Shown one piece after another: positions 25,821 to 51,563 of a DNA stretch of 64,000 nucleotides (position 1 is its first letter; every line of letters begins with the position of its first letter). Under the pieces are notes generated by a model. The model did no database searches. It was not told where the DNA came from and was given only the letters and a program-made list of their open reading frames with translations. The DNA lies in NCBI GenBank assembly GCA_016188495.1, contig JACPHU010000029.1:11136-75135 (forward strand), written 5' to 3'. This DNA comes from Candidatus Uhrbacteria bacterium. GTDB taxonomy: Bacteria; Patescibacteriota; Patescibacteriia; UBA9934; GWF2-40-263. The position numbers and the translations under genes are program-made.

Positions 25821-25897
25821 AAACAAAAAATCACCATTTTTTAATGACGATTTTTTGACAAAGCATGTGGGTCTACTCACACGCCTTCTCATGGCTC
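25821..25897. repeat. ~80-bp direct repeat, distal copy of the tRNA-Asn 3' flank (includes terminator hairpin)
   Basis: aaacaaaaaatcaccattttttaatgacgattttttgacaaagcatgtgggtc.actcacacgc.ttctcatggctc is nearly identical to 51408..51496. Confidence 0.7.
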
Positions 25898-25989
25898 CGC
25901 GTCGTGGGCGATGTTAGGACTGCGATACAGGAATATGATGGGTACATTTCGATTCCGAAACTTACAGCGGTTGATTTGGTTTATTCAAA

Positions 25990-26451
25990 CTAGAATATCT
26001 TTGCAGAAAGTGAAAGGAGTGGTTTACATTCTTCTCTCATAAATTCAGGATACAATTCTAATTTTGGATCGCCAGCAGCTATAACATTTGCAGCAGGAAT
26101 CATGACTCTCCATTTGCTTTCATCTGTTCGATCTTCTCGACTTGCTCCGTAAACGATTCCTTCCAGACGTGCCCAGATACAGGAGGATGCGCACATGGGA
26201 CAGGGTTCATACGTTGTATATAAATAACATCCTTTGAGTTTTGTAGACTGTAATTTTTGTGCAGCAAGACGAATGACATTAATTTCTGCGTGTGCTGTCG
26301 GATCAAGGTCGCGACGAACGGATGTGAATGCTTCCGCGATCACTTCGCCGTCTTTTACGATCAAAGCTGCGACAGCATGTCCGCCTTCCTGATATTTCGC
26401 TCGAGCAAGATCAATGATTCGTTGCATGAGTTCTTTTGAAGGTTGAATCAT
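25990..26451 (-). CDS. CMP/dCMP-type zinc deaminase (TadA-like)
   Basis: HAEINVI...PCPMCASS zinc-binding signature. 153 aa. Confidence 0.7.
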   Translation of the reverse strand: MIQPSKELMQRIIDLARAKYQEGGHAVAALIVKDGEVIAEAFTSVRRDLDPTAHAEINVIRLAAQKLQSTKLKGCYLYTTYEPCPMCASSCIWARLEGIVYGASREDRTDESKWRVMIPAANVIAAGDPKLELYPEFMREECKPLLSLSAKIF

Positions 26452-26537
26452 AAAAGCAATTTAATTTTCAATTACATTCTACCAGTTCCCATTCCCACTT
26501 GGGTATAACAAAAAAACACCATATACATGATGTTTTT

Positions 26538-26645
26538 TGCTGGCTCGGCGTACGGGTGTCGAACTCAAATTTGATCAATGATTTAGGGGTTAATTCGCAG
26601 GACAAAACGAGCATGAGGGTCTCAGAAAATGAGACAAATGAGACA
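26538..26645 (-). repeat. modular conserved intergenic element, copy B
   Basis: Same conserved blocks as 21538..21647. Lies immediately upstream of the deaminase gene. Confidence 0.6.
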
Positions 26646-26686
26646 GTACAAGGGGTTTCTACGAGTAAGTAGAAATAACAGGATAT

Positions 26687-27751
26687 TCAAGCATTTTTCG
26701 AATTTTCTTGCTCAGAAAGTCGGCGAATCTCGTGATTGTCTACGTAGCCACGGAGTACTCCGATTAACGCTCCCAGCGTCGAATGAACGGATGATTTTAC
26801 GATTCTCCAGTTCGTTTCTTGAAGCGCTGTTTTGAGAACGGAATTTGCAACCTTTGTTGCAGTTATGTCGGATCGATCTTTGTTTGTGTCAAAAGCTGAC
26901 AACTGAATACGCAGACCGTTTGAAGTTGAAGGGTTCTTAATATGAACCTGTGTAAACCCAACGTCCTGTAGGGTTTTGACAAGTAGCTCTTGAAGTTCGA
27001 TAACGCGCAACTTTCGAATGTTTTGAATGTGTTCTGTGGTTTTTGATTCTTCTTCATTGGATTTCATTCGTTTCACGAATTCTCCCATCTGCTTCATGCT
27101 TTCTCTGGATTCAAGATACACTTTAAGCTCTTGATCATCGATACAATATTTCATCCGGTCCTCTGAAAAGTGCTCATCGATTGGTTTGATTTTGGGTGAA
27201 AAATCCATCTCTTCATGATCATTATTTCCACAGCTCTCGCATACTGAATCGAAAGTGACGATGTTGTCCGTACGAGTCGAGGTTTGTTTCACAACGGCAT
27301 TACATTTTGTGCATGTGTGTGGCTTGATTCGATACTCATTTCCATCATTAAAAAACGCACGTCGAGGAAGGCATCCGTTTGGACATTCATAAAACAAAAT
27401 GACTCTTTCTTGATCGCTTGAGGAATCAAAATGCTTATCCATGAAATTCATTTTTGAATAACAGCGTAAACAAGAAATATCATTTCGTGGCTCAGTGTCA
27501 TCAACCAACTTCTGATGTCTGAGATCGCGTTCTATCCATTCACGAATACGAGCATGCTTCATTGCTGCCCGTTCACCTTTTTTCATCCAAAGTAATAGTT
27601 TGTTTGCCGCAACCAGTAGCCTCACTTTTTCATCTCGATCAGGTTCATCCGACGGAATTTCATTCAACCGTTTTTTATGGGCTTCTTCATACCACCGACA
27701 CTCCTTCACAGTCAGACGATCATAAAAATCAGAGTACTCAAGTTCGTTCAT
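26687..27751 (-). CDS. hypothetical protein with Cys-rich zinc-ribbon-like segments
   Basis: 354 aa. CLRCYS...CPNGC and CTKCNA...CESCG. Confidence 0.4.
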   Translation of the reverse strand: MNELEYSDFYDRLTVKECRWYEEAHKKRLNEIPSDEPDRDEKVRLLVAANKLLLWMKKGERAAMKHARIREWIERDLRHQKLVDDTEPRNDISCLRCYSKMNFMDKHFDSSSDQERVILFYECPNGCLPRRAFFNDGNEYRIKPHTCTKCNAVVKQTSTRTDNIVTFDSVCESCGNNDHEEMDFSPKIKPIDEHFSEDRMKYCIDDQELKVYLESRESMKQMGEFVKRMKSNEEESKTTEHIQNIRKLRVIELQELLVKTLQDVGFTQVHIKNPSTSNGLRIQLSAFDTNKDRSDITATKVANSVLKTALQETNWRIVKSSVHSTLGALIGVLRGYVDNHEIRRLSEQENSKNA

Positions 27752-27849
27752 ATTTCAATCACGTATTCTCTTGACCGAGAATCAATAGACGATAAAATAA
27801 TCTATATAAAAACAAACCCATTTTTAAAGGTTTGTTTATTTTTACTAGT

Positions 27850-28689
27850 TTACTTTGCCAAATCCACGCTCATCTCCTGACCATCAGGAAGTTTGAGATG
27901 AACCGTACTTGGCGAATCCCAACCTGAGATAGAATTTCTGAAAGAAAAATCAGGAGAAGGATCGCTTGGTATCTTCATGGTAAGCGCCTTTTGTTCTTTC
28001 ACCGTCTGAGTTATCGGATCAATAGCGAATAAGGTTCCATGAAGATATTCTGGATCTTGAGCGCTTTGAGACTCGTCATAAGCAACAACCGCAATAACAC
28101 GACCATCCGGTGAATAAGCAAGATCGCTTACATAGACGGTTCCCGTGTGAGAGGCTTGCAGAGGCAGGGGAATGGTTACATCAGGATTAAGGATCGTTGG
28201 ATCCTCATAGCGTCCAATGTTGTAAAGATCAATGTTTACAGAAAGTTTTTGCGTTTCATTGTCTAAAGACAGATCAGAAAAAGCGAAGGAGACGTTGTCT
28301 GGGGAAGTTGCCCAAAAGGTTCCATCACGTTTCACATAACTGACTGCACCCGTTTCGCGAGAAATGCGATACATGGCCCCAGAATTTAATCGCAATGCAT
28401 GGATTCCAGTAATAATGTCTATATACTGGCTACTGATACGAGCAATTTTTACCGTGTCTTCGGTTAAAACTTCTCCAACAACGGCTAATACATGATCACT
28501 ATCTACAACATAAAATTCTTTTTCTCCTCCATAAAGAGAAATCTCTTGTTCTGTTTGGATCAGATTTCCATGGGGGAGTGTCTTTTGTGAAGACGTGTTT
28601 TTAGGAGAAATCATTGAAAAAATAAAAAATGTTGTAAGACAACCCAAAAGGAATACGGAAAGAATAAAGATATTTTTTTTAAAAATCAT
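27850..28689 (-). CDS. secreted hypothetical protein
   Basis: N-terminal hydrophobic signal/anchor (IFILSVFLLGCLTTFFIF). 279 aa. Confidence 0.4.
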   Translation of the reverse strand: MIFKKNIFILSVFLLGCLTTFFIFSMISPKNTSSQKTLPHGNLIQTEQEISLYGGEKEFYVVDSDHVLAVVGEVLTEDTVKIARISSQYIDIITGIHALRLNSGAMYRISRETGAVSYVKRDGTFWATSPDNVSFAFSDLSLDNETQKLSVNIDLYNIGRYEDPTILNPDVTIPLPLQASHTGTVYVSDLAYSPDGRVIAVVAYDESQSAQDPEYLHGTLFAIDPITQTVKEQKALTMKIPSDPSPDFSFRNSISGWDSPSTVHLKLPDGQEMSVDLAK

Positions 28690-28751
28690 ATGTAGAAAAA
28701 AGGGCAGTCTAGCTTGTAACTCGACTGCCCATGAGGTTGGTGTTCTTATGA

Positions 28752-30068
28752 TCAGCTACCCTGATAGCACTGGGCTGTCGTGCTGTAGATACAGTTCAGA
28801 TCGTAGTAATTTCCCAGATTTTTGATCCCATCTCCCGAGAAACTCATTGTATGGCTTCCGATATATTCATTCCCGTCTGCAACGATCCAGTTAGAATCGA
28901 CTACGCGATAGGTTGAACCGCTTACATAGACAACGATGGCAGAGTGTCCATACGTCTGACGCAAAACATCTCCGGCACTAATTGTACTGCTTGTAAGCAG
29001 AGAAATGGAATACTTCGTCCTGTAATCAGAAGAGTTGAGATTTGTATCACTTGGCAGGATACGCCATGATCCTGAACCAATTGAACTTGATCCTGAATGA
29101 AACACTCCGCTGCGATAAGCAAGGAGATTAGAGAACGCTTTGCATTGCGCGCCGCGTGGGCGAGTGGAAGTGGTGCAGGAAGAGGCCTGACAAGTATATT
29201 TAGTCGCCCCATTTGTTGCCCCATACGTCGGAACAGTACAAGGGGTGTAACCACCTGTGCGACAAGAAACGTAGTAAGCAGTTACGCTATCCGTACTATA
29301 TCCTCCGGTACTTGAGGTAAGGTATCCCCATGCCGTCGGATCATAATCGATATAGGAATAATACTTCGAACCGCTTGGGTTTGTCTTGCCGGCTGTGGCC
29401 TTGGCATAGTAACTCGTCGATCCGCTTGAAATCGCTGTGCCATACCAACACGATTGACCCGATGTACAGTTGGAAGAAGAAGAGTAATCTCCGCTCATGG
29501 CAAAGGACGCTTCCCAGATAAGACGAGAGCGTGCGGATGCTTCAGAAGCGAAGCTATGCATTTCAGGACTCACCTTGTAAGCGACGTTTTCGTTTTGTTG
29601 AATTTCTTCCATTCCCAATTGTTCAGCCCAGGGAAGTAAAGTTTTATCATCATTTCGAATTCGTTCGCTCAACCGCGCATTTCCCTCAAGAACGGGATCA
29701 ACAGCGACTTCCCAAAGATAGAGTCCGAGATCTTCTACATAGACACGATCAATCGGAGTGGCGCCTTCCGTCATGGGTGCAAAAGCCAGACGTCCGTCGT
29801 CCATGAAGGAGTGAAGGCTACTTTCATCCACGAAATCCATGAGGTAGTAACCATTTTCCAAGACTTCTTGAAAATCCACGGAATGATCGATCCTTTGAAG
29901 AAACTCTCCGGTCTCGTTGTAAACATCGACGTAACCCAGATTCACAAATGCGGCTCCAAAAGCCACATAGGATTGAGTCGTCTCGTTTTCCTCACCGGCA
30001 CAGCCGATCCAGAAACTCGAGGTGACGGCTACCAACAAGAAAAGAACCAAGCTCAGGTTATGTCGCAT
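28752..30068 (-). CDS. lipoprotein, possible CHAP/NlpC-like hydrolase C-terminal domain
   Basis: Signal plus lipobox (FWIGCAG). Ser/Thr/Tyr-rich middle. C-terminal GDV...GHSAIVV resembles CHAP. Confidence 0.4.
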   Translation of the reverse strand: MRHNLSLVLFLLVAVTSSFWIGCAGEENETTQSYVAFGAAFVNLGYVDVYNETGEFLQRIDHSVDFQEVLENGYYLMDFVDESSLHSFMDDGRLAFAPMTEGATPIDRVYVEDLGLYLWEVAVDPVLEGNARLSERIRNDDKTLLPWAEQLGMEEIQQNENVAYKVSPEMHSFASEASARSRLIWEASFAMSGDYSSSSNCTSGQSCWYGTAISSGSTSYYAKATAGKTNPSGSKYYSYIDYDPTAWGYLTSSTGGYSTDSVTAYYVSCRTGGYTPCTVPTYGATNGATKYTCQASSCTTSTRPRGAQCKAFSNLLAYRSGVFHSGSSSIGSGSWRILPSDTNLNSSDYRTKYSISLLTSSTISAGDVLRQTYGHSAIVVYVSGSTYRVVDSNWIVADGNEYIGSHTMSFSGDGIKNLGNYYDLNCIYSTTAQCYQGS

Positions 30069-30281
30069 CGTACTTCTCCTTGTGTTTCAATCGTCCTCAT
30101 TTCTGTTTTGAAGTAAAGATCAAAGAGAAAACAGAACGATCGGGGGCTATGTTAAGGGTTGTGGCAAATGATTGTCAAACCGTTAAAAATTCTGCTTTAT
30201 TCCAATATAAATCTGAACGTGAGAATTTTCGTTGATACTAGGTATTGTCGAAGGAGGAAAACGAAACACCTGCTCAAATGA

Positions 30282-30836
30282 CTAGGAAATGGGGGGAATT
30301 AAAAAATTCCATTGTACGATAAGAAAGTTTTTTGGCTTCAGTCCGGTCTGCAGAGCAGCTTGAAGCCAATTGTTTTGAGAGGAACGAACAGAATCTTTTT
30401 TGTTGCGTTTGGATTCAATGAAAAGTAACTCCTCGCCTTTCCACGCGAGAACATCCCAACAACCATCGTAGGTATTATGGTTCTGTTGAGCTATTACAGT
30501 AAGTTTTTCCAAAATCCACGGTTCATCAATGTCACAATTGGTCTGCTCTTTGTACGGTCTGTTTTGCCAATCCAAAAGAAACATCGGCGGTTTATTGCCT
30601 CTGGCATATGTTTCAACCCAATAAGCCGTATATCCAAGTTGTTGAAATGTTCTTGCGATCGCTAGCTCAGCAAATATGGGAACACCATCGAAATCAATAA
30701 AGGGTTTTCCTCCGAAACTGTTTGGCTTGGCTCCGTGCCATTCTTTAAATGAAATGATTGCTTTGGGTACTTCAACAGAACTATCTTGTAGGTGAAAAGT
30801 TTCGAGACTTGTTGGGTTTAGAAATTCAGAGTTCAT
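30282..30836 (-). CDS. PD-(D/E)xK nuclease-fold protein (putative)
   Basis: CWDVLAWKGEELLFIESK fits a D...E.K core. Confidence 0.35.
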   Translation of the reverse strand: MNSEFLNPTSLETFHLQDSSVEVPKAIISFKEWHGAKPNSFGGKPFIDFDGVPIFAELAIARTFQQLGYTAYWVETYARGNKPPMFLLDWQNRPYKEQTNCDIDEPWILEKLTVIAQQNHNTYDGCWDVLAWKGEELLFIESKRNKKDSVRSSQNNWLQAALQTGLKPKNFLIVQWNFLIPPIS

Positions 30837-31183
30837 ACGTTACTCTTGTCTAAATACTTGAACCATTTCATCTTTACAGCCTCTTCAACATTTATTCCAA
30901 CATGGTCAGCGAAAAGAAGAATGTAGCTAAACGTGTCCGCGATCTCTTCCGCGAGCGCGGCTCGTGCTTCTGCTTCTGAATCAGGTTTACGACGCGTCCG
31001 GTTCGTCATGATGAGGTACTTCTGCGTCATTTCCCCGAGTTCCTCTTGAAGCTTAAGCAGAAACCAATCGCCGTCGTACTTCACGTTGAAATTTTGTGCG
31101 TACCGATCAGCAACTTTTTTAACAGTTTCGGTCATTTGTTTTAACTCCATAAATTTTGTTTTACATTTTACAAAAATGATCAT
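30833..31183 (-). CDS. MazG-like nucleotide pyrophosphohydrolase domain protein
   Basis: LQEELGEM...ALAEEIADTFSYILLFADHVGINVEEAV matches the MazG helical-core pattern. Confidence 0.55.
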   Translation of the reverse strand: MIIFVKCKTKFMELKQMTETVKKVADRYAQNFNVKYDGDWFLLKLQEELGEMTQKYLIMTNRTRRKPDSEAEARAALAEEIADTFSYILLFADHVGINVEEAVKMKWFKYLDKSNV

Positions 31184-31562
31184 TCCAAAAATTCATTAAG
31201 TCCTGATCAAAATTAACTGATGCACCCTTTCTGTATTTTTCATGTGTATATCGTTTTTTTGCGGCGGAATCAAAGAGTTCGCGCACTTTTTCGTATTGTT
31301 CCTTTGTGGGAGGCGATTTAAAAAATTCATGTGCCACTTTGTTCCGTTCCTCTGGTTCTTCTTCTGAGCACACCTCTACCAATAACTGAGAAAATAAGAG
31401 TATGCCAGCAACGAAAAATTCCTGCTTTGCAGACATAACGGCTTCCTCTACGGCATCGTGTAACAATGGAAATTCAATTAATTTTTCCATCAAGCGAATG
31501 GACGAAGCGCAAAAGCACGAAGCCTGTGGTCCTCCAATGTTGATATAAGAAATCGTTGACAT
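31161..31562 (-). CDS. hypothetical protein
   Basis: 133-aa ORF within a minus-strand gene string. Confidence 0.35.
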   Translation of the reverse strand: MSTISYINIGGPQASCFCASSIRLMEKLIEFPLLHDAVEEAVMSAKQEFFVAGILLFSQLLVEVCSEEEPEERNKVAHEFFKSPPTKEQYEKVRELFDSAAKKRYTHEKYRKGASVNFDQDLMNFWNDHFCKM

Positions 31563-31568
31563 AAAACT

Positions 31569-31826: not shown

Positions 31827-32465
31827 TTATGAATTTTTAACAACTTTAATGACCACACCGTTTACTAAATATCCTGACGTGTTCAGATCTTCCTCGTGCA
31901 ACACGATAGGAGGAATTGGTGAAGTAGATTCTGAAACAAGACGAATCTCGTGTTTAGCTTTGTCTTTATAGAAACGTTTAAAGTTTGCTGCTTCATCAAT
32001 GATGGAGATAACGTAGTTTCCATCCTGAGGCGCTTTCTTTGTATCAACGATGACGTAGTCACCATTTTCGATTGATTCTCCTTCTACGTCTGCCTTGTTC
32101 AGTGAATTACCAATGGCACGAACAGCAATGAGACCGTTTGGACGTGAGACCCCTAGAGATCGCTGAGAAATCTTGAGGAATCCTTCAATGTCCTCACGGG
32201 CAAATTCCAAAGCTGGACCACAGTTTGCAGATCCGACGATTGGGATGTTGAAAAGGTTATCCACAACGTACGCAAGTGGTTTGGCAATTCGATGTTGTTT
32301 CTTGGTGTCGACATAGAACAACCCCTTTTTCTTGAGTTGTTCCAAGTGGTAAATGACGGTTTGAGGATTTTCGATATCAAGTTCGCGTGCGATTTCACGA
32401 AAACTCATCTTCGATAGATCCTTATTCTCTGCCAATTCAAGCAGTTTTTGTTGATTCTCATGCAT
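31827..32465 (-). CDS. LexA/CI-like repressor (HTH + S24 peptidase domain)
   Basis: N-terminal HTH (FREIARELDIENPQTVIYHLEQLKKKGL). C-terminal AVRAIGNSLNKADVEGESIENGDYVIVD...KRF with S24 Ser/Lys dyad spacing. Confidence 0.6.
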   Translation of the reverse strand: MHENQQKLLELAENKDLSKMSFREIARELDIENPQTVIYHLEQLKKKGLFYVDTKKQHRIAKPLAYVVDNLFNIPIVGSANCGPALEFAREDIEGFLKISQRSLGVSRPNGLIAVRAIGNSLNKADVEGESIENGDYVIVDTKKAPQDGNYVISIIDEAANFKRFYKDKAKHEIRLVSESTSPIPPIVLHEEDLNTSGYLVNGVVIKVVKNS

Positions 32466-32631
32466 AAAAAGTTGGTGATTGAAAAGTGACTGATGGTATG
32501 AAGATGTACTTCGACACGCACTCATTGAAAATCATCTGAAGCTTATCAATCATTTATAATTTCGTCAATAATTTCCTTTACGGCATTGACACCATTGACA
32601 CAGAAAACAAGCCTGTATATACTTTTACTAT

Positions 32632-33059: not shown

Positions 33060-34379
33060 ATGAACGATCTCAACATTATTCATGTCCCCGTCGTGGATCT
33101 CAAACCCGCGGAGTACAATCCGCGTAAGCATTCGCAGGAGCAGATGACCCAACTACAGGAATCCATTAAACGTTTTGGGTTGGTAGATCCGATTATTTGT
33201 AACAACGCTTCCGAGCGCAGCAACATCGTCATTGGCGGCCACTTTCGTTTGGAGGCTGCTAAAGCTCTTGGCTATACAACAATTCCGGTCGTGTACGTTC
33301 ATATCCCCGAGATTGAAAAGGAAAAGGAACTCAATGTCCGGCTCAACAAAAACACAGGGGAGTTTGATCTGGACCTGCTCGCCCAGTTTGATGAGTCATT
33401 TCTGCAAGACATAGGTTTTGATTCAGAAGAACTTGATGACATCTTTCCAGCCGAGGAGAACCCGGAAGTCTTTGATCTAAAAAAAGAACTCGAGAAGCTC
33501 AACATTAGTGAAGTCACTGTGCAAAAAGGAGATGTCTATGAACTGGATGGATCCAGGCTTATGTGCGGCGACTCCACGATAGAAGAAGACATGCTCAAAC
33601 TGCTTGGTGAACACCAGGCTGATATGTGCCTCACGGATCCGCCATACATCCTCGATTACCTCAAAGGAAAAAAGAAGAACGGTGAACCTACTGAAGGATT
33701 TGGGTATAAAAGGGATCGTAAGTATCTGGAGACGGATGTTCTTCCACCAGATTTCACAGAGAAATGGATGGACAACGTCGCGAAAGTTGCTAAACCTGAC
33801 TTCTCTATTATCTGCTATGAAAATTGGAAAAATCTGCGGGTCATTTGGGGTGAAATGGAAAAACATTGGAAGGTAAAAAATATGATCGTCTGGCATCTCC
33901 CTAATCGTCATCAAGGATATTCGGCGAAAAATAAGTTTTTCAACAAGCATGATATTGCTGTGGTCGGTGCTTCGGGTGACATTCCCTACAACATCGATGA
34001 GGAAGAGCAACCGTTGCAAGAGGAGTACGAAACAGCACTCTTTGCCACAGAAGGTAAACCGCATTGGGAAACGTACGAGAAAGGGAAAAAAGATTGTCCG
34101 ACAGATTTCATTGAGTTTATGGCTTCAGACGAGAAACATTCCGGCCAAGGGGTGGTATTTGGCACCAAGCCAATCGACATCCTTATTCCGTACATCAAAG
34201 TCCTTACCAAACGCGACAGTCTGATCCTTGAACCCTTCGGCGGATCTGGATCAACACTCATCGCCGCTGTCCATATGAAACGCCGATGTTTCCTCATGGA
34301 AAAGTGTCCGACCTATGCTCAAGTTATTCTCCAAAGATGGGAAAAACAAACCGGGCAAAAGCCTTTTAAAATTACATGA
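33060..34379 (+). CDS. ParB-like nuclease domain fused to beta-class N6A/N4C DNA methyltransferase
   Basis: ParB N-terminal region (IICNN...GGHFRLEAAKALG). Motif IV CLTDPPYIL precedes motif I EPFGGSGSTLIAA. Confidence 0.8.
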   Translation: MNDLNIIHVPVVDLKPAEYNPRKHSQEQMTQLQESIKRFGLVDPIICNNASERSNIVIGGHFRLEAAKALGYTTIPVVYVHIPEIEKEKELNVRLNKNTGEFDLDLLAQFDESFLQDIGFDSEELDDIFPAEENPEVFDLKKELEKLNISEVTVQKGDVYELDGSRLMCGDSTIEEDMLKLLGEHQADMCLTDPPYILDYLKGKKKNGEPTEGFGYKRDRKYLETDVLPPDFTEKWMDNVAKVAKPDFSIICYENWKNLRVIWGEMEKHWKVKNMIVWHLPNRHQGYSAKNKFFNKHDIAVVGASGDIPYNIDEEEQPLQEEYETALFATEGKPHWETYEKGKKDCPTDFIEFMASDEKHSGQGVVFGTKPIDILIPYIKVLTKRDSLILEPFGGSGSTLIAAVHMKRRCFLMEKCPTYAQVILQRWEKQTGQKPFKIT

Positions 34380-41433: not shown

Positions 41434-41435
41434 AT

Positions 41436-43603: not shown

Positions 43604-44427
43604 AGAACTTTCTTGAAACATATCCTTTGTACAAATGGATTGAATTCCAAGCAACCGAGGATCACGAAAAGTATAAAGATGTAAAAGTCCATCCCCCTGC
43701 AGTCAATTTAGATTGTTCTATATGTGAATCAAAGCAAACATATCGAGTTTATGAAGATGGATCGCTAGCTAATTTTGGTGGACATCACGATAACAACATT
43801 TATCGTCTTGAATATGTTTGCGCAGGATGCAAATCTGCAAATATAGAGTTTTTACTTTTCGTCCATCGGAGTAACGGCCACGATGCAAAGAGCAAGAAAT
43901 ATCTCTACAAAATGAAAATTCAAAAAATTGGTCAGTTTCCTGCTTGGTCCATTAATCCAGACCCGGGGATATCCAAATTGTTAGGTGAGCATGTAGATAC
44001 GTATAAAAAGGGGTTGGTTTGCGAATCTCAAGGTTACGGTATAGGGGCATTTGCGTATTACCGAAGGATCGTCGAAGATAACGTCGAGTCGTTACTGAAT
44101 CAAATCAAAGAATTAGTCGAGGATGAAACTGATGTAGTAAAAGGCATTGAAGAAGTGAAGGCTGAACATAATACAGAGCAAAGAATCAGGATTGCATCGA
44201 CCGTACTTCCAGAGTCGCTACAAGTGGCCGGGAACAATCCTCTTTCGGTAATTTATAGTGCTTTGAGTGAAGGGTTACACGTACAAGATGATGAGACCTG
44301 TCTAAATTTGGCGCACAATATCCGTGAAGCGCTGACATATTTAGTGCATCAAATTAATCTACAAACACAAGGTAAAAGACAATTTACGGAGAGTTTAAAA
44401 CAGATTGTAATCGCTAAAACTAAATAG
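43600..44427 (+). CDS. hypothetical Zn-ribbon protein embedded in the Type I R-M operon
   Basis: CSIC...CAGC Zn-ribbon then about 170-aa helical domain. Translationally coupled (4-nt overlap with hsdS). Confidence 0.45.
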   Translation: MKNFLETYPLYKWIEFQATEDHEKYKDVKVHPPAVNLDCSICESKQTYRVYEDGSLANFGGHHDNNIYRLEYVCAGCKSANIEFLLFVHRSNGHDAKSKKYLYKMKIQKIGQFPAWSINPDPGISKLLGEHVDTYKKGLVCESQGYGIGAFAYYRRIVEDNVESLLNQIKELVEDETDVVKGIEEVKAEHNTEQRIRIASTVLPESLQVAGNNPLSVIYSALSEGLHVQDDETCLNLAHNIREALTYLVHQINLQTQGKRQFTESLKQIVIAKTK

Positions 44428-44428
44428 T

Positions 44429-44689
44429 ATGCCATTGCCAGATAATTATAAAGATCTAATTCTTGAGAAACTCAAGGAAAAAGGTGCGATACCTCTGTGT
44501 GAGATTTGTCAGCACAATGACTGGGCAGTTGTGGATCAGGCTATTAGTGCACCAATTTCAGATTTGACTGGAGGAATGAGGATCCCGCAACCGCAGATCC
44601 CTTGTGCTGGTCTCATTTGCAACAACTGCGGAAATTTAAGACTTTTCGCTCTTGGTGCGTTGGGTATTGATGTTAATCCGAAAAAGTAG
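44429..44689 (+). CDS. small Zn-ribbon protein (86 aa)
   Basis: CEIC...CNNCG. Starts 2 nt after the previous stop. Confidence 0.4.
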   Translation: MPLPDNYKDLILEKLKEKGAIPLCEICQHNDWAVVDQAISAPISDLTGGMRIPQPQIPCAGLICNNCGNLRLFALGALGIDVNPKK

Positions 44690-44692
44690 GAT

Positions 44693-45106
44693 ATGCCTGA
44701 CTATATTCATCATGATCCTGATCGCATTCTCTATTCGTTATCTGAAGATGAACTGGAGAATCTTTCAAATCAAGCACAATCACTTTGGAAGGACGTATGT
44801 CTCGTATCATTTTCGGTTGGGATCCCAACTGTAATTAATGCCATTGCAGAATTAAGTAATCAAGAAACATTTCAAATAACGATAACCATTTTCTTAAATA
44901 TATTGATTGGCATCATGGGGATTGCACTTGGAATAGTTTTTGCTATTGCTTGGCACCGATCACATAAGTCAATTAAAAATGTTATGGATAATATAAAAGC
45001 GAGACCAAAGATTGAATTGAATCCTACTACCTCCAATGTTGGAGCTCTGGAGGATCTCCGAGGAGAACTCAAAAAGATTGCGAATCAGCCTGCAAGATGG
45101 GGGTAA
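44693..45106 (+). CDS. small 2-TM membrane protein (137 aa)
   Basis: Two strong hydrophobic helices (VCLVSFSVGIPTVINAIAEL; ITIFLNILIGIMGIALGIVFAIAW). Starts 4 nt after the previous stop. 10 nt before hsdR. Confidence 0.4.
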   Translation: MPDYIHHDPDRILYSLSEDELENLSNQAQSLWKDVCLVSFSVGIPTVINAIAELSNQETFQITITIFLNILIGIMGIALGIVFAIAWHRSHKSIKNVMDNIKARPKIELNPTTSNVGALEDLRGELKKIANQPARWG

Positions 45107-45115
45107 ATAATATAT

Positions 45116-48070
45116 ATGAAAATCACGAATACGAAAGAAATCGGCTTTGAGGAATATATCGAGAAACAGCTCGTCGAAGTTAATGGATACAAGAAACAGT
45201 CCAATACTGCCTATCAACGGAATCTTTGTTTAGATCCGGAGATGGTCTTGGAGTTTATTAATGTCACTCAGGCTGATGCGTGGGGTGAACTTCTCAAGAT
45301 GCATGGTGAAGATATTAACGAGAAGTTCTTTAAGCGGTTATCGGATGAGGTTCGTGACCGCGGGGTGCTTGATGTTCTTCGGAATGGTTTTGCGGATCAT
45401 GGCGTAAATTTCAAGATGGCATATTATCCTCCCAACTCGGGGATGAATGAGGAGACGATTCGTTTGTTCGAGTCGAACGTACTTAGTGCCATGCGACAGG
45501 TTCACTACAGTGAAAAAGATGTTGATTTGTCTTTGGACACGGTTATTTTCCTCAACGGTCTTCCTATCTTTACTATTGAATTGAAAAACCAGCTCACTGG
45601 TCAAAGTGTTCAAAATGCCATTCGCCAATATCGAACAGATAGAGACCCTAAGGAACCTTTGTTTGTGTTTAAGCGATGTTTGGCGCATTTTGCCGTAGAT
45701 ACTAAGCAGGTCTACATGACGACAAAGCTGGCGGGGCTCAAAACGTATTTCTTGCCATTTAATAAGGGATACAATAGCGGCGCGGGAAATCCTCCAAATG
45801 CAGATGGATACATGACCTCTTATCTTTGGGAAGATATTTGGACAAAGAAAAGCGTGCTCGAGCTCGTAGGGAAATTTATCACGCTGCAAAAAGAAAAAGA
45901 TGTTGACAGTAAAGGGCGTGAGATTATTAAAGAGAAACTCATCTTTCCCCGTTACCATCAACGCGACACGGTTCAGCGTTTGATAGCTGACGCACGTGAT
46001 AATAGTGCCGGACAGAACAATTATCTGATTCAACATAGCGCAGGGAGTGGAAAGAGCAATACGATCGGATGGACGGCACATCGATTGTCTGAACTTTATA
46101 ATGCAGATGACAAAAAGGTGTTTGACACGGTTTTGGTTATTACAGACCGGCGTGTTCTCGATCGGCAATTGCGAGACACTGTTACGCAGTTTGAACAGCG
46201 TGCGGGTGTTGTAAAAGCGATCACGGAAGGATCAAAGGAATTGCAAGAAGCATTGGAGGGCGGTGAGAAAATCATCATCACAACTTTGCAGAAGTTTCCA
46301 TTCATCGTTGACTCCATCGGAAATCTTCCCGGTAAGAACTTTGCGGTCATTATTGACGAAGCGCATTCTTCACAATCCGGAGAAGGTGCCGCAAACTTGC
46401 GGGAAGCTTTGACAACGAATGATTTGAGCGATGCAGAGAAACAGGAGTCAGATGAACCTGAGACGACGGAAGACATGGTGTTGCGCAAGCTTCGCAGTCG
46501 AAAGATTAAGACAGACAACATCAGCTTCTTTGCGTTTACAGCCACACCCAAGCAAAAGACGTTGGAGTTGTTTGGGACAAAAAGCCCAATTGATGGCAAG
46601 TATTATCCATTTAGCCTTTACTCGATGAAGCAGGCTATCGAAGAGCGTTTTATTCTTGATGTGCTGAAGAATTACACAACGTATCAGGCGTATTTTGCTT
46701 TGTTGAAAAAAGTTGAAGACGACCCGGAGTTTGATAAGAAAAAGGCACAAAGACTGCTTATTGGATATGTTGAGAAACATGAGCATGCGATAGCGAAAAA
46801 AGTGGAGATCATGGCCGAGCACTTCAGAGCTCGTATTGCTAAAGAGATACATGGCAAAGCAAAGGCGATGATCGTCACAAAATCTCGGCTGCACGCTGTT
46901 CGTTACAAGCAAGCGATGGATGTCTATCTACGCGAACATAACTATCCGTTCAAGGCATTGGTCGCATTCTCCGGAGTCGTAAAGGATGGTGTGAGTGAAT
47001 ATTCTGAGGGGGGAATGAATGGTGTTTCAGAAAAGCAAACGGCGGAGACATTTAAGCAAGATGATTATCGGTTCTTGATTGTTGCTGAGAAGTTTCAAAC
47101 GGGATTTGATCAGCCGTTGCTAGGTGCTATGTACGTTGATAAAAAGCTCGGAGGAGTGAACGCCGTACAAACATTGAGTCGTTTGAACCGTACGACATCC
47201 GATAAGGAAGAAGTGCTCGTGTTGGATTTTGTGAATGACATGGATGATATCAAGGAAGCGTTCCAGCCATATTACACAACGACTGTTTTGTCGGAGGGTA
47301 CTGACCCAAATATTCTTCATGACTTGGAGCGAGATCTCTATGCCTTTAAGTTATTTACACAGCATGAGGTTGATGGATTTGTACATGAGTTATTTCACAA
47401 TGCATCTCCAGCAACCATTAATGCAATCCTAGATAAGGTTATTGAGCAATACCATGAAGGTCTTCCACAAGAACAGGAGGACTTTCGTAAAAAGTGCACA
47501 GATTTTGTGCGTCGATATGCGTTTGCAGCTCAAATTATTCCATACGAAAGTTCTGAACTTGAAAAGCTATACACATTCACACGTCTTCTCTTGAAAAAGA
47601 TTCCACGTGTAAAAGAAGCTTTGCCAACAGATGTATTGGATAGCGTCGACATGGAATCATATAAGCTCGTACATCGTGGACAGGATGCTATTCGCTTGGA
47701 GGATGAGCTTGGAAAGCTTGATCCAATGCAGAGTGGACAAAAGGGTGAAGATATAAAAGAGCATGACCGTCTCTCAAAAATTATCAATGATATAAACGAC
47801 CGGTTCGGCACAGAGTTTTCTGTTGAAGATGTTGTGATCACAAATCAGCTTGGAGAACGTTTGGTGAATAACCCAATGCTTCAGGGATCAATCAAAAACA
47901 ACACCCGCGATGCCGCGAAGATCAAGTTTGACGAAGTTCTCGGACAAGAGTTGGTTGAAATGTTAAACCGTCATTTCGACTTTTATAAAAAACTCGATAA
48001 AAATCCTGACTTGAAGACCTACTTCGGTGAAAAAATGTTCGATCATGTTGTAAATGCGGTAAAAAAATAA
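45116..48070 (+). CDS. hsdR: Type I restriction enzyme endonuclease/translocase subunit
   Basis: N-terminal PD-(D/E)xK (DTVIFLNGLPIFTIELKNQ). SF2 helicase motifs (AGSGKSNT; DEAH in VIIDEAHSSQ). 984 aa. Confidence 0.9.
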   Translation: MKITNTKEIGFEEYIEKQLVEVNGYKKQSNTAYQRNLCLDPEMVLEFINVTQADAWGELLKMHGEDINEKFFKRLSDEVRDRGVLDVLRNGFADHGVNFKMAYYPPNSGMNEETIRLFESNVLSAMRQVHYSEKDVDLSLDTVIFLNGLPIFTIELKNQLTGQSVQNAIRQYRTDRDPKEPLFVFKRCLAHFAVDTKQVYMTTKLAGLKTYFLPFNKGYNSGAGNPPNADGYMTSYLWEDIWTKKSVLELVGKFITLQKEKDVDSKGREIIKEKLIFPRYHQRDTVQRLIADARDNSAGQNNYLIQHSAGSGKSNTIGWTAHRLSELYNADDKKVFDTVLVITDRRVLDRQLRDTVTQFEQRAGVVKAITEGSKELQEALEGGEKIIITTLQKFPFIVDSIGNLPGKNFAVIIDEAHSSQSGEGAANLREALTTNDLSDAEKQESDEPETTEDMVLRKLRSRKIKTDNISFFAFTATPKQKTLELFGTKSPIDGKYYPFSLYSMKQAIEERFILDVLKNYTTYQAYFALLKKVEDDPEFDKKKAQRLLIGYVEKHEHAIAKKVEIMAEHFRARIAKEIHGKAKAMIVTKSRLHAVRYKQAMDVYLREHNYPFKALVAFSGVVKDGVSEYSEGGMNGVSEKQTAETFKQDDYRFLIVAEKFQTGFDQPLLGAMYVDKKLGGVNAVQTLSRLNRTTSDKEEVLVLDFVNDMDDIKEAFQPYYTTTVLSEGTDPNILHDLERDLYAFKLFTQHEVDGFVHELFHNASPATINAILDKVIEQYHEGLPQEQEDFRKKCTDFVRRYAFAAQIIPYESSELEKLYTFTRLLLKKIPRVKEALPTDVLDSVDMESYKLVHRGQDAIRLEDELGKLDPMQSGQKGEDIKEHDRLSKIINDINDRFGTEFSVEDVVITNQLGERLVNNPMLQGSIKNNTRDAAKIKFDEVLGQELVEMLNRHFDFYKKLDKNPDLKTYFGEKMFDHVVNAVKK

Positions 48071-48082
48071 TAATCAAATATA

Positions 48083-48112: not shown

Positions 48113-48207
48113 ATGTCCACAATGTTACCTACAAGTTACCTACTCCTCCTACTAGGCACCCGGGACAGACGCGGTAATGTGTGGGTCATAAGGAGTAAAC
48201 AATTCTT

Positions 48208-49542
48208 ATGTACGCACAAAACACGAACAACGATCCCGGCAAAGCCATACCAATCCGCTACTGCCTTTACGCGAGAAAATCGTCCGAGGATGACGAACGC
48301 CAGGCATTATCAATCGAGAGTCAGGTTAAGGAGGCACTTGAACTTGCTACGAGAGATGGCTTGAATGTTGTCGAAGTTCGCCGTGAAAGTCATTCTGCGA
48401 AAAGCTCCGGGTCACGCCCGGAGTTTAATCGTTTAATTGGGGACATTCGGGAAAAGAAATTCGACGGAATCCTAACATGGGCGGCGGATCGCATAAGTCG
48501 TAACGCCGGTGATCTTGGAACCGTTATCGATCTCATGGATCAAGGACTGCTTCGAGAAATTCTTACGCATGGCACAAAGTTCACCAACTCACCGAGCGAC
48601 AAGTTCATGCTCATGATGATGTGTGGTCAGGCAAAGCTGGAGAACGATAACAAGGGTGTGAACGTGAAGCGTGGGTTTCGGGCAAAGATCGAGATGGGTT
48701 TTCGACCAAACATGTCACCACTCGGATACCTCCACGATAAATATGCAGAAAAAGGAACATGTAAAATCTTTATGGATCCTGTTCGTGGACCAATTATCAA
48801 AGAAGTATTTCATAAAGTTGCCTACGAAGGTTGGACTGGGCGCAGCGTAAAACGCTGGCTCGATGATGAAATGAAGCTCACGACGCGCAAAGGTAAACAG
48901 GTATCGCTCAGCATGATCTACCGCATGATGGATAATTCGTTCTACACGGGTCGCTACGAGTTCCCGCAAGGAAGTGGAAAATGGTACGACGGTAAGCACG
49001 AGGCACTCATCACGAAGGATATATTTGATCGTGTGCAAGAAGTCATGAAATGCGCTCCGAAGGCGTTACCGGGAACTCACGAATTCGCCTTCACAAGAGT
49101 CTTCAAGTGCGGTGAGTGTGGATCCGGTATCAGCGCAGACCAAAAAGTGAAACGACTGAAAGACGGAACGACAAAACGATACGTCTACTATGGATGTATG
49201 AAGCGTTGGATGACAGGATGCAAACAGCCGTACATTCGCGAGGAGGAGTTGCTCGACCAGCTCTACAAAATCATCGATAAGGTAAACATCAATGAACTTG
49301 CAGCTATCGAGCGAATCAAACAAGAAATTGAGCGACTGACGAAGATGATCTCAAGCCTCGGCGGTCACATCGCGACCGCAAAAGTCGCCGAAATCATGCC
49401 GGACATCGATGTCTACGCTTGCGCGAAATACATCTTGAAAGAAGGCACCAAAGACGAGAAACGTGATCTGCTTAATCACATCAATACTGAATTGTTGATC
49501 TCTGACGGAAAGATAAGCTTCAAGGGTAAGGCTAAACGCTAA
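48208..49542 (+). CDS. large serine recombinase (resolvase/invertase catalytic domain + recombinase domain + zinc ribbon)
   Basis: YARKSSEDDERQALSIESQ with catalytic Ser, resolvase fold. CGECGSGISADQ zinc ribbon. AGGAG RBS. Confidence 0.85.
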   Translation: MYAQNTNNDPGKAIPIRYCLYARKSSEDDERQALSIESQVKEALELATRDGLNVVEVRRESHSAKSSGSRPEFNRLIGDIREKKFDGILTWAADRISRNAGDLGTVIDLMDQGLLREILTHGTKFTNSPSDKFMLMMMCGQAKLENDNKGVNVKRGFRAKIEMGFRPNMSPLGYLHDKYAEKGTCKIFMDPVRGPIIKEVFHKVAYEGWTGRSVKRWLDDEMKLTTRKGKQVSLSMIYRMMDNSFYTGRYEFPQGSGKWYDGKHEALITKDIFDRVQEVMKCAPKALPGTHEFAFTRVFKCGECGSGISADQKVKRLKDGTTKRYVYYGCMKRWMTGCKQPYIREEELLDQLYKIIDKVNINELAAIERIKQEIERLTKMISSLGGHIATAKVAEIMPDIDVYACAKYILKEGTKDEKRDLLNHINTELLISDGKISFKGKAKR

Positions 49543-49999
49543 GTTCGCTTCTCAGTACCGACGCATAATCAACCCTATCCTCAGGATTAGATTTCTGCGC
49601 CTTCCACAGCTCTTCTGAGAAACGATCTCCTACAAAGCGTGGCACAAGATGGAGATGATAGTGGAATGCGTGTTGGTCGCCAGCGGGTTCGTTGTTTTGA
49701 AGAACAGTTACTCCATCGCATTGTCTGATCGCCTTCATCGTCAGCGTCACCTTTTTTGAAACTTCAAATATCCGATGACCATAATCATCGGGCAACTCAT
49801 AGAGATTTTCGAAATGTTTGATTGGAACAATGAGAGGATGGCCTTCATTCCCTTTAATAGCCTTTGAGCTTATAAATCCCATCACGAGTTCGTCTTTGTA
49901 AAAAATATCCGCCTGTTTAATCCATGTACTCTCATTCTCAACCCCTTCAATCGCAAGGCAGATGGGACATTGGTAATTTTCAGGGGCATGATTATACAT
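49532..49999 (-). CDS. HIT-family (histidine triad) hydrolase
   Basis: HAFHYHLHLVPR histidine-triad motif. Start taken at the Met that abuts the HAD gene stop. Confidence 0.7.
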   Translation of the reverse strand: MYNHAPENYQCPICLAIEGVENESTWIKQADIFYKDELVMGFISSKAIKGNEGHPLIVPIKHFENLYELPDDYGHRIFEVSKKVTLTMKAIRQCDGVTVLQNNEPAGDQHAFHYHLHLVPRFVGDRFSEELWKAQKSNPEDRVDYASVLRSELSV

Positions 50000-50000
50000 A

Positions 50001-50618
50001 TTATTCGGCAAGAAATCGCTTAAAACTTTCGAGGTTGGTGTAAAAATACGTTTCAAAACCTAGCTCTCTCGCCGTTTCAATGTTCTTTTCACCATCGTCG
50101 ACAACGAGGATGTCTTTCTTCGCGATAAGTTCACTAAACGGTGCGTGTGATGCCTGATTTAGGGCATCATAAACGTGCTCGTAATACATCGGATCTTTCT
50201 TAACCGCTCCAATTTGTCCCGAATAAAAAACACGTTCAAAAGGTTTACGATTGCCAAGAAGATTTTGTAAGTATCCTCCACGATACTTTTCTTGATCCGT
50301 CGTCATAAAACAACGAACACCCATATCACAAAACGTCTGTACGCAATCGAGAACCGTCTGATCAATCTGGGTGCCTTTCGTAAACCAGTATTCCATCAAC
50401 TCCTCAACCGTCCCTTTCCAGCCCCATCCAGCGATAACCTTGGAAAGCTCCTCTTTGAGGTCGGCTTTACCGATGGAACACTGCCTAAAAATACCCGTAA
50501 AGAAGGGTTGAAGGATTTCCGTCTTGATTCCGTGATCAATCTCTAGCTGTTCGCTAAACAGGCGAGATGACTTGAGTACTACGCCATCGGCATCCCAAAA
50601 AATTGCTTTATAGCCCAT
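50001..50618 (-). CDS. HAD-superfamily hydrolase (subfamily IA-like)
   Basis: Motif I IFWDADGVV. 205 aa. Confidence 0.7.
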   Translation of the reverse strand: MGYKAIFWDADGVVLKSSRLFSEQLEIDHGIKTEILQPFFTGIFRQCSIGKADLKEELSKVIAGWGWKGTVEELMEYWFTKGTQIDQTVLDCVQTFCDMGVRCFMTTDQEKYRGGYLQNLLGNRKPFERVFYSGQIGAVKKDPMYYEHVYDALNQASHAPFSELIAKKDILVVDDGEKNIETARELGFETYFYTNLESFKRFLAE

Positions 50619-51228
50619 AGATATTTTCTGTTCGGTATTCCTTGTCGGTTAATCTCACGAACGTCAATTGTTCGCCGTACTGTTTAATAATCTTGTCATG
50701 CTCCGCCGAAAACTGTTCAACCTGGTCATGAGGCAACACGACATAATCAACAAGACGAAGACACGACGGATTCGTTAGGACGAAATCCTTCGGCAACTCT
50801 GCAAGATCTTCGGTCACAAAAGGCTCAACTGTCGGACCAGCAAGAATCGATCCCGCACTTGAACCAATGTACATTTTTTCATTTCCAAGAAGTCTCCTGA
50901 CTACGGATGAAAAACCGGAGACATGGGCTTGTTCGACAAGATAAGTTGTGTTGCCACCGGCGACGAAAATAATATCGTGGTTGGATAGCTCTTTTTCAAG
51001 CGATTCCGCTGACCCACCCTTTAAATCGATATCCGTTACGTTGTATCCAAGTTCGACGAGAGCTTTTCGATCCGCGTCGATCCATGGCCGTTCTGGATAC
51101 GGATTACCAGCCGTTGGGATAAAGGCAACCGATGCCGCTTTTGGTAGCAGGGATTTTTCTCGAAGCTCTCCAGCGACGGTATTGAAGCTGGAAGTGAGAA
51201 TGAGATTGTATTTCGGACTATCGCTCAT
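50608..51228 (-). CDS. pepE: peptidase E / S51-family (class I glutamine-amidotransferase-like) dipeptidase
   Basis: FVAGGNT and GSSAGS motifs at S51 positions. Confidence 0.7.
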   Translation of the reverse strand: MSDSPKYNLILTSSFNTVAGELREKSLLPKAASVAFIPTAGNPYPERPWIDADRKALVELGYNVTDIDLKGGSAESLEKELSNHDIIFVAGGNTTYLVEQAHVSGFSSVVRRLLGNEKMYIGSSAGSILAGPTVEPFVTEDLAELPKDFVLTNPSCLRLVDYVVLPHDQVEQFSAEHDKIIKQYGEQLTFVRLTDKEYRTENIYGL

Positions 51229-51407
51229 AGTGCCTGAATGATAGCAACTTTTGATAAATTCCCACAGTCTGGCGGAATCGAACCTTGTCTGGGGATCGAA
51301 CCGAAAAAATAAGGCAAATTTCTTCTTTTGGGCATTTGAGAAAAATTCGATCAGTTTGCGTCCCAGATACTTCGGCTTTTTGGTCGGGCTACAAGAGTCG
51401 CTATTTG

Positions 51408-51496
51408 CTCAAAGACTAAACAAAAAATCGCCATTTTTTAATGACGATTTTTTGACAAAGCATGTGGGTCACTTCACACGCTTTCTCATGGCTCGG
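51408..51496. repeat. ~85-bp direct repeat, tRNA-proximal copy (tRNA 3' end + terminator hairpin + flank)
   Basis: Near-identical to 25821..25897. Overlaps the last 8 nt (GAGCCA...) of tRNA-Asn. Confidence 0.7.
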
Positions 51497-51563
51497 GGGG
51501 CGGGATTCGAACCCGCGACCAATTGGTTAACAGCCAACTGCTCTGCCACTGAGCTACCCCCGA
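51489..51563 (-). tRNA. tRNA-Asn (anticodon GTT), CCA encoded
   Basis: Minus-strand cloverleaf folds by hand. Acceptor TCGGGGG/CCCCCGA. D-arm GCTCAGTGGCAGAGC. Anticodon loop CTGTTAA. T-arm GCGGGTTCGAATCCCGC. Discriminator G then CCA. Confidence 0.85.

Follow-up and report, generated by a model that had tools for sequence, protein, structure and literature searches.

The 64-kb stretch of DNA analyzed here (the window) holds a single tRNA gene by both ARAGORN and Rfam, a tRNA-Asn(GTT) with an encoded CCA on the minus strand (51489-51563; Rfam score, 74 bits), and an Rfam scan of the window returned no match besides this tRNA. We consider it probable that the 3' end of this gene is a tandem integration hotspot and that its newest member, which we call S1, is intact and driven by a large serine recombinase (LSR). 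S1 is a predicted island of 24.9 kb (26541-51488) bounded by the 8-bp core CCGAGCCA. An earlier note on this DNA had pointed to an integrated island with a serine recombinase at the same tRNA. The island stands, with the LSR as its most likely integrase, but its limits are not those of the long direct repeat that had been taken to mark them.

That repeat is real. A repeat search paired 25798-25897 with 51395-51494 at 85% identity over 100 nt, and BLAST trimmed the pair to 25820-25897 and 51417-51494 (93.6% over 78 nt), bearing out the report of a near-exact copy of the tRNA 3' flank that includes the end of the acceptor stem and a terminator hairpin. Its 40-nt exact core (25834-25873 and 51431-51470) had 2 matches in the window versus 0 expected from 100 shuffles. 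The tRNA contributes only its last 6 nt, GAGCCA (acceptor-stem GA, discriminator G, and CCA); the remainder, here called T2, consists of TGAG..., hairpin 1, GTCAAAA, hairpin 2, and a T-run. The 64 kb contain two copies of T2 and no more, each directly 3' of GAGCCA. Copy A (51417-51488, minus strand) is the tRNA-proximal (P') arm of S1 and with GAGCCA makes up the right-hand repeat copy, while copy B (25820-25891, minus strand) is the tRNA-proximal arm of an older unit, S3, and with GAGCCA makes up the left-hand one. Across 7 homologous copies from 5 genomes, 10 of the 24 stem pairs in the T2 hairpins are kept by compensatory changes, and the T-run and hairpin 2 of copy A form the predicted terminator of the tRNA transcript.

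The limits of S1 emerged from a comparison with L009, a 4.9-kb JGI metagenome contig (Ga0209417_1017643) that carries the T2 core. Its source is a relative, judging by the CDP-alcohol phosphatidyltransferase gene beside its tRNA, which is 72% identical in nucleotides and 74% in amino acids to that of the window, and the tRNA itself is 97% identical. The earlier note had recommended looking for an empty tRNA-Asn site in related genomes, and L009 provides one. Its intact tRNA-Asn, ending in CCGAGCCA, is joined directly to a terminator hairpin (T1) plus a promoter-like sequence (P1), with no S1. In the window, the homologue of T1+P1 (26469-26540, minus strand; 80% identical to L009 1334-1412) lies 650 bp inside the repeat-bounded interval and ~25 kb from the tRNA; by the L009 match, it followed the tRNA before S1 came. 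Because 26541-51488 is an insertion relative to L009 and is flanked by CCGAGCCA, we set the limits of S1 there. One copy of the core (51489-51496, minus strand) is the last 8 nt of tRNA-Asn, the integration target, and is listed in our junction table as the attL core; the other (26541-26548, minus strand) is the attR core. The flanks of the two copies are unrelated save for the similarity of a diverged pseudo-tRNA.

This pseudo-tRNA belongs to the far (P) arm of S1, which we call frag (~26541-26653, minus strand). It is a conserved sequence of ~110 nt that runs from TGTCTCATTTGTCTCATTT to a pseudo-tRNA-Asn 3' part, GAGTTCGACACCCGTACGCCGAGCCA, and the attR core is its last 8 nt. GAGTTCGACACCCGTACGCCGAGCCA lies just upstream of T1+P1 and is a diverged tRNA-Asn 3' end that agrees with the tRNA in 20 of 26 positions, including all of the last 8. 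Frag is conserved in a second copy near 21.5 kb of the window and in the related loci L096 and L014; it aligns with the 3' part of the tRNA, and its ~110 nt of conservation take in a tandem TGTCTCATTT motif. A far arm that resembles the 3' part of the target is expected if one protein reads both partner sites. Neither T2 nor frag was matched when IMG/VR was scanned for their DNA patterns. The tandem motif TGTCTCATTTGTCTCATTT is strictly conserved ~85 to 105 nt inside the far arm, or ~45 to 65 nt in the shorter arm of L069 (window 26625-26645 and 21627-21647; L014 492-509; L096 4511-4528; L069 5452-5469), and may be a candidate binding site for a regulator or directionality factor.

In L009, T1+P1 is followed by one gene, then by an ~75-nt block (the C-block) ending in GAGCCA, and then by T2. 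The C-block and T2 of the window are 86% identical to L009 2003-2148. The corresponding unit of the window, S2 (25898-26540), lies between S1 and S3 and has one gene, encoding a TadA-like deaminase (25990-26451, minus strand), and a C-block pseudo-tRNA arm (25898-25966, minus strand) that ends in the core GAGCCA (25892-25897). The cargo gene of L009 is a hydrolase-like open reading frame (ORF) with a weak alpha/beta-hydrolase match that is unrelated to the deaminase; we also considered it as a homologue of a serine hydrolase found elsewhere in the window, and the two are not homologous. Since L009 has an S2-type unit directly against its tRNA without S1, the interval between the two T2 copies is composite.

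The simpler proposal, that the whole of 25.8-51.5 kb is one island with the 85- to 100-bp direct repeat as its attL/attR pair, draws on a repeat that is highly nonrandom and starts inside the tRNA 3' end, and on a recombinase close to the tRNA. We regard it as very improbable. L009 carries the T1/P1...C-block:GAGCCA-T2 unit at its tRNA in the absence of S1, frag sits with its own GAGCCA core 650 bp inside the supposed island and recurs in other elements, and T2 copy B is preceded by a C-block conserved with L009 and not by S1 sequence. Serine integrases, moreover, leave short repeats: the elements they move are flanked by repeats of 2 to 21 bp (PMC4701971), a range that 8 bp of flanking identity fits better than an 85-bp repeat does. 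The doubt raised earlier, that such a long repeat would be atypical for a serine integrase, is settled in the same way, as the true S1 repeats are only 8 bp. The interval is therefore S1 plus a separate S2, and the T2 copies are arms of S1 and S3. Neither GC content nor skew, the profile that had been proposed as a check, sets the interval apart from its flanks. The 78-nt T2 pair could allow RecA-dependent loss of S1 plus S2 as a secondary effect, which would not be the origin of the repeat.

Two T-arm-like pieces, GGTTCGATCCCCAGAC and GGTTCGATTCCGCCAGAC, lie on the minus strand within 51266-51303 (at 51274-51284 and 51292-51302), after T2 and ahead of the first cargo gene of S1. The motif GGTTCGAWYCC has only 3 matches in the 64 kb, the T-arm of the tRNA and these two pieces, versus 0.24 expected, so the T-arm-like fragments that had been noticed near the tRNA are genuine. 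Similar copies of the cognate tRNA's T-arm occur inside the right end of several elements whose targets are different tRNAs, 45 to 250 nt past the tRNA or junction (L010, ~14650; L013, ~15035; L022, ~5040; L063, ~12800; L071, ~13410; L069, ~5325).

Junctions and older units on the tRNA strand

With S1 included, the tRNA strand from 16.4 to 51.5 kb (35 kb) probably represents a stack of units inserted successively at the extreme 3' end of tRNA-Asn. Self-comparison and a motif scan revealed at least 7 junctions in this region, all on the tRNA strand, which upholds the earlier suggestion of repeated integrations at this gene. Each has the same form: a degenerate 3' part of tRNA-Asn that ends in (C/G)GAGCCA, with a hairpin/T-run terminator directly after it. 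At the core at 51489 the real tRNA is followed by T2 copy A; at 26541, frag by T1; at 25892, the C-block by T2 copy B; and at 21541, the second frag by a T1-type sequence, T1'. The remaining cores are at 18160, 17111, and 16360. L009 has three further junctions of the pseudo-tRNA:GAGCCA-terminator form.

The left and right parts of these junctions pair freely: the tRNA, frag, the C-block, and two other types of left part are found with right parts of either the T1 type (ACAAAA-hairpin-TTTTGTT) or the T2 type. In all 17 junctions compared, from 8 genomes, the switch between left and right part falls directly after GAGCCA, and a fixed switch point of this kind is the mark of reciprocal, site-specific exchange within the core or at it. 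The first and second frag share an identical 29-nt block over the core and the first three downstream bases. A crossover in the T-loop was considered and rejected, given that the switch is always after GAGCCA and that the 3' part of frag is element specific and differs from the tRNA.

It had also been suggested that the repeat is a duplicated terminator cassette. In its full form this would make T2 and T1 ordinary terminator/promoter cassettes spread by homologous recombination or gene conversion, with GAGCCA incidental and the LSR element inserted elsewhere. Part of the idea holds, in that both T2 and T1 contain intrinsic-terminator hairpins and T2 supplies the terminator; P1-like promoter motifs recur in the window and L009, and the 40-nt exact core could support RecA-mediated exchange. 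Yet T2 is borne by the element and is found only twice in the 64 kb, always right after the GAGCCA core; 7 of 7 junctions are on the tRNA strand, each after a pseudo-tRNA 3' half; T2 accompanies the LSR in four other genomes, at tRNA-Asn or a pseudo-tRNA junction; and tRNAs near LSRs of the family lie downstream in 21 cases versus 0 upstream, always convergent. We therefore find the cassette explanation highly doubtful and favor successive integration at the tRNA.

The unit behind S2 is S3 (21541-25891, minus strand), an LSR-less remnant or miniature unit with T2 copy B and a frag as its arms. The second frag arm (~21541-21653, core 21541-21548, minus strand) is 92% identical to the first (21533-21583 versus 26533-26583) and 90% identical to the frag of L096. 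S1 and S3 share the arm pair T2...frag, and it is for this reason that T2 is seen twice, 25.6 kb apart. S3 encodes TspO (25239-25724, minus strand; Pfam) and an IS1595 transposase (23941-24798, minus strand; DDE_Tnp_IS1595, 9e-46), and its other ORFs, of 134, 173, 311, and 170 aa, lie on the minus strand within 21541-25819.

Units S4 to S6 occupy 16360-21540, and their boundary junctions (18160-18166, 17111-17117, and 16360-16366, minus strand) join a pseudo-tRNA ending in (G/C)GAGCCA to a T1-type terminator. S4 has genes for a collagen-like/peptidoglycan-binding protein (19318-21495) and a DUF218 protein (18243-18905), S5 has an ORF of 294 aa (within 16360-21540), and S6 encodes a serine hydrolase (16382-17056), all on the minus strand, with the named families assigned by Pfam. 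The collagen-like product is 725 aa long and combines a peptidoglycan-binding domain with long collagen triple-helix repeats; its gene has many internal direct repeats at 19.8-20.9 kb. A promoter-like motif, GTGGGAAT(GGGAAC)TGGTAnAAT, stands upstream of unit cargo genes in both the window (26480-26510 and 51240-51262) and L009 (1385-1410 and 4740-4760).

The recombinase family and a model of integration

The LSR of S1 (48208-49542, plus strand; 444 aa) is convergent with the tRNA and has the Resolvase (PF00239; 8.8e-21), Recombinase (PF07508; 1.4e-12), and Zn_ribbon_recom (PF13408; 9.6e-09) domains. Its catalytic residues R23, S25, D94, R95, and R98 do not vary in an alignment of 25 homologues, and by sequence matches its closest solved relatives are SPbeta YokA and the TP901-1 integrase. 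The family is widespread, is known chiefly from the candidate phyla radiation (CPR), and is large, with 7965 homologues at E≤1e-20, whose named sources are Uhrbacteria, Peregrinibacteria, or Patescibacteria. A single-protein scan of IMG/VR with the LSR gave no match; an alignment-based scan did find copies.

We surveyed 6 kb on each side of 74 LSR copies from IMG/VR and other loci for tRNA genes. Downstream of the LSR stop a tRNA was present in 21 of the 74 copies, always on the opposite strand (229 kb examined), compared with 0 of 74 upstream, where more sequence was covered (384 kb). The downstream tRNAs are for Ser, Gln, Glu, Asp, Asn, Arg, and Trp; in five cases the distance is only 100 to 200 nt. 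In L010, L097, and L013, an LSR 72 to 81% identical to that of S1 sits 0.6 to 4 kb from tRNA-Asn and convergent with it, and the core is followed by T2. In L010 (CAYPWV010000002.1; LSR, 81%), tRNA-Asn...GGAGCCA and T2 are followed by three unrelated genes and the convergent LSR, and L097 (ERZ1292625 contig 1245; 75%) has the order dnaG-rpoD-tRNA-Asn plus T2, one gene, and the LSR. In L013 (ERZ25039462 contig_5985; 72%), the LSR is separated by 1.1 kb from a pseudo-tRNA:GAGCCA plus T2, with the real tRNA-Asn 2.8 kb beyond, an arrangement in which the element was evidently displaced from the tRNA by a predicted later insertion. The 11-kb element of L014 (74%) ends at its far side in a frag-like arm, GAGCCA, and a T1-type terminator. 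In L096 (81%), a frag 90% identical to that of the window is joined at GAGCCA straight to T2-type sequence; this is the predicted attP configuration, present here probably as the junction of two tandem elements. An att site within the 3' end of the LSR gene, as in rumA-type integrative and conjugative elements (ICEs), was also considered, and no conserved sequence was found there.

What the sequences show directly is how the junctions are built, that a relative has an empty site, that both arms are conserved, and that LSRs of this family lie near tRNA genes. In our model of integration the LSR, as the putative catalyst for S1, would join an attP (frag-CCGAGCCA-T2) to an attB (tRNA-Asn...CCGAGCCA-T1), with strand exchange within the 6- to 8-bp core or at its border. 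The products would be an attL of tRNA plus T2 and an attR of frag plus T1. The tRNA sequence would be left unchanged, hairpin 2 of T2 would replace the displaced terminator, and each newcomer would push older units away from the tRNA; we infer the exact crossover position and the order of events from the junctions. S3 would be an older unit of the S1 att type that has kept both arms and has no recombinase, and the LSR-less units with both arms (clearly S3, possibly S2, S5, and S6) may most simply be deletion derivatives. The reconstructed attP has an imperfect dyad made up of TTCGACAC and GTGTGAAG, one on each side of GAGCCA at a distance of 9 nt; it was found by eye and is weak evidence.

Because targeting of a tRNA 3' end is a hallmark of tyrosine integrases (PMC4701971), one of these, supplied in trans or since lost, could be imagined to integrate the element at the tRNA, leaving the LSR as a passenger or with a role in resolution or inversion. 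In Prochlorococcus, 910 of 937 tRNA-associated elements use a tyrosine integrase (bioRxiv 10.1101/2020.12.28.424599), and an identical core of 7 to 8 bp would also suit the overlap region of a tyrosine recombinase. Set against this, Pfam detected no tyrosine recombinase in the ~70 window ORFs scanned, which include all those of at least 90 aa in 25.9-51.3 kb, nor is there one in the Pfam-annotated gene tables of L010, L013, L014, L096, and L097. The LSR, in contrast, is the one gene consistently at the tRNA-proximal end, in fixed orientation. We judge a tyrosine integrase unlikely and retain the LSR as the better candidate.

Several points count against LSR-driven integration of S1 as we describe it. 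Neither an excised circle nor an empty site was seen in the source population, and the three Logan assemblies with these genes all link the deaminase to S1. The Logan contigs are uninformative on circles because they break inside the 40-nt T2 core: one contig of 25617 nt equals the T2 spacing of 25597 minus 40 plus 60, as expected at k=31. One 4.9-kb contig supplies the empty site, and its organism is related but not identical; the frag-T2 sequence of L096 could be a tandem junction and not a free attP. Both T1-type and T2-type sequences occur as the right half of the target, and a sequence-specific LSR would have to accept either. The pseudo-tRNA far arm turned up in the tRNA-Asn subfamily alone and was not found in distant loci of the LSR family, in which searches for far-end pseudo-tRNA relics gave chance-level matches only (L033 had no relic). 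No recombination directionality factor was identified, and no boundary relic separates the right-end cargo of S1 (49532-51228) from the LSR; this cargo may have entered with S1 or afterwards.

Other features of the related loci deserve mention. Six IMG/VR contigs carry two copies each of the LSR family (L016/L017, L036/L046, L040/L049, L035/L058, L043/L062, and L082/L083), which is consistent with tandem elements; in L096, a second element directly abuts the first. Also in L096, a tRNA-Arg(TCT) at 2582-2657, between T2 and the LSR among right-end cargo that includes an FtsZ/tubulin-like protein, is either cargo or a second target. A group I intron (Rfam RF00028; 66.8 bits) interrupts the tRNA-Asn of L097 (11967-12600, minus strand) at the anticodon loop and carries a Cys-rich ORF of 107 aa that has no Pfam match; ARAGORN misses this tRNA. 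At 916-1340 of L009, a duplicated tRNA promoter and first ~21 nt, followed by a GIY-YIG nuclease ORF (78 aa; Pfam, 8.3e-15), precede the intact tRNA-Asn, as though an insertion of the homing-endonuclease type had duplicated the 5' end of the tRNA. A scan with the protein encoded next to the window's tRNA gave only 24 to 30% matches, in Peregrinibacteria/Peribacteria metagenome-assembled genomes and with no tRNA nearby.

Gene content of S1

The gene types listed in the earlier note (a LexA/CI-like repressor, a ParB-methyltransferase, a TerS-like helix-turn-helix [HTH] protein, nucleases, type I restriction-modification [R-M], and an LSR) were all recovered by Pfam, PHROGs, and NCBIfam. The family core comprises the LexA/S24-like repressor (31827-32525, minus strand), the ParB-N6/N4 methyltransferase (33060-34379, plus strand), and the TerS-like HTH protein (34376-34861, plus strand; PHROG 4044, 1.2e-08). 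Among the LSR family loci, tblastn found homologues of the TerS-like protein in 61, of the ParB-methyltransferase in 59 (identity reaching 70%), and of the repressor in 6. Elements of the family share these three and often have a TerL-like protein and a Cas4-like nuclease as well. IMG/VR contains 69 loci of the family, and relatives carry a TerL-like gene (Terminase_6C); in S1 there were no TerL, capsid, or tail matches, and the TerS-like HTH gene is its only packaging-type gene.

Next to this core are an HSDR_N_2 nuclease-like protein (34858-35637), a protein without an assigned family (35663-36664), and a Cas4/PD-(D/E)XK plus RNaseH-like nuclease (36951-38420; Pfam, PHROGs, and PADLOC), all on the minus strand; L010 has a Cas4/DUF2779 protein at the matching position. 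Defense cargo follows on the plus strand, with a Fic/SoFic-like gene (38435-39391; Pfam and PADLOC) and a type I R-M locus (39394-48070; Pfam and PADLOC) made up of hsdM (39394-41433), hsdS (42269-43603), hsdR (45116-48070), a gene for a DUF4145 protein, and two unknowns. In related elements this slot holds other genes (GmrSD, MmeI-like, and CBASS), and across the family the variable defense cargo beside the LSR includes type I, IIG, and III R-M, GmrSD, and CBASS.

The right end of S1 carries variable cargo on the minus strand, identified by Pfam and NCBIfam as an S51/PepE-like peptidase (50608-51228), a HAD hydrolase (50001-50618), and a HIT protein (49532-50056). These genes had no homologues in 90 related loci, and the same slot holds unrelated genes in other elements. 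A 165-nt fragment in the older unit S4 (18899-19063), between the collagen-like and DUF218 genes, is homologous to 50475-50639, at the HAD 5' end and the S51 3' end (90% nucleotide identity over 126 nt; 76% over 55 aa), and may have been left behind by an earlier copy of this cargo.

On the left side, an operon on the minus strand (26687-31562) encodes proteins of 133, 116 (MazG-like), 184, 438, 279, and 354 aa, mostly without an assigned function. Homologues of the 354-aa protein lie toward the left side in 4 related elements, and 1 element has a homologue of the 184-aa protein. The 354-aa ORF, which lies beside frag, was considered as a divergent tyrosine integrase and rejected; it has no family match, and its product is Cys-rich and zinc-ribbon-like. 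Farther off, at 2080-5572, the window encodes a nonribosomal peptide synthetase-like carboxylate reductase of 974 aa (AMP-binding, PP-binding, and NAD_binding_4) adjoining a phosphopantetheinyl transferase, which is unexpected if the host is a genome-reduced CPR bacterium.

Relation to known systems and significance

LSR elements and prophages such as phiC31, Bxb1, TP901-1, SPbeta (SprA/YokA), SCCmec (Ccr), and the rumA-type ICEs of Streptococcus have the same domain set and catalytic Ser, and resemble S1 in having the recombinase at one end, very short flanking identity, and no long att repeats. Those known lie mostly inside protein-coding genes, whereas the family described here sits at tRNA 3' ends (Asn, and in relatives Ser, Gln, Glu, Asp, Arg, and Trp). 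It also differs in leaving the tRNA intact, in bringing its own terminator, and in having a far arm that is a diverged copy of the 3' part of its target tRNA. Classical tRNA islands of the tyrosine-integrase type (P4-like elements, and the high-pathogenicity island at asn tRNAs) share 3'-end insertion with a regenerated tRNA, a partial tRNA copy at the far end, and defense and accessory cargo. S1, in which no tyrosine integrase was found, thus falls outside the definition of this class. Those islands have a repeat block of 15 to 50 nt, whereas the exact repeat of S1 is only the last 6 to 8 nt, the rest of its far end having diverged (20/26).

The tycheposons of Prochlorococcus show successive integrations at one tRNA, partial tRNAs between units, and cargo-only remnants, and an LSR is present in 27 of the 937 tRNA-associated elements there (bioRxiv 10.1101/2020.12.28.424599). 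Their islands are like the region described here in having tandem units parted by partial tRNAs, with newcomers pushing older units inward. The host lineage differs, being by inference Patescibacteria/CPR in our case, from the names carried by LSR homologues and from weak protein matches, as do the core genes, here a LexA-like repressor, a ParB-methyltransferase, TerS/TerL-like proteins, and a Cas4-like nuclease. Pfam, PHROGs, and NCBIfam detected neither the tyrosine recombinase nor the primase/helicase of tycheposons in S1, and the LSR is their exception but the rule here. Integron arrays offer another parallel, with one-directional, mostly single-gene units that have related, imperfect site-like ends, and with unit ends shared while the cargo differs between genomes (S2 versus the first unit of L009). 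No IntI, attI, or attC was found here, the unit ends are pseudo-tRNA halves, and the units carry promoter-like and terminator sequences of their own; mobility of the small units is only conjectured.

As that conjecture, which we offer tentatively and hold to be unlikely, the small LSR-less units (S2, S3, S5, S6, and their L009 counterparts) would be, instead of dead remnants, miniature nonautonomous elements with both recombination arms retained and moved in trans by the LSR, the 3' end of tRNA-Asn would serve as an integron-like gene-capture platform in genome-reduced CPR bacteria, and the recurring T-arm-like pieces and the conserved hairpin 1 of T2 would be functional accessory sites.

The paper library searched contained no description of this LSR family or of Patescibacteria LSR elements that sit at tRNA genes, which is weak evidence of novelty. 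The analysis corrects the limits of the island, for which the long repeat misled as an element arm seen twice in a stack. It also points to a large, well-conserved serine integrase family, with thousands of homologues, many annotated from Patescibacteria, that uses tRNA 3' ends, a niche normally credited to tyrosine integrases. The elements of this family ferry R-M, CBASS, GmrSD, and other defense genes. If this is confirmed, they would be a major means by which genes move among the small genomes of host-dependent CPR bacteria, and serine integrases with conserved tRNA ends as natural targets would be of interest for genome engineering.

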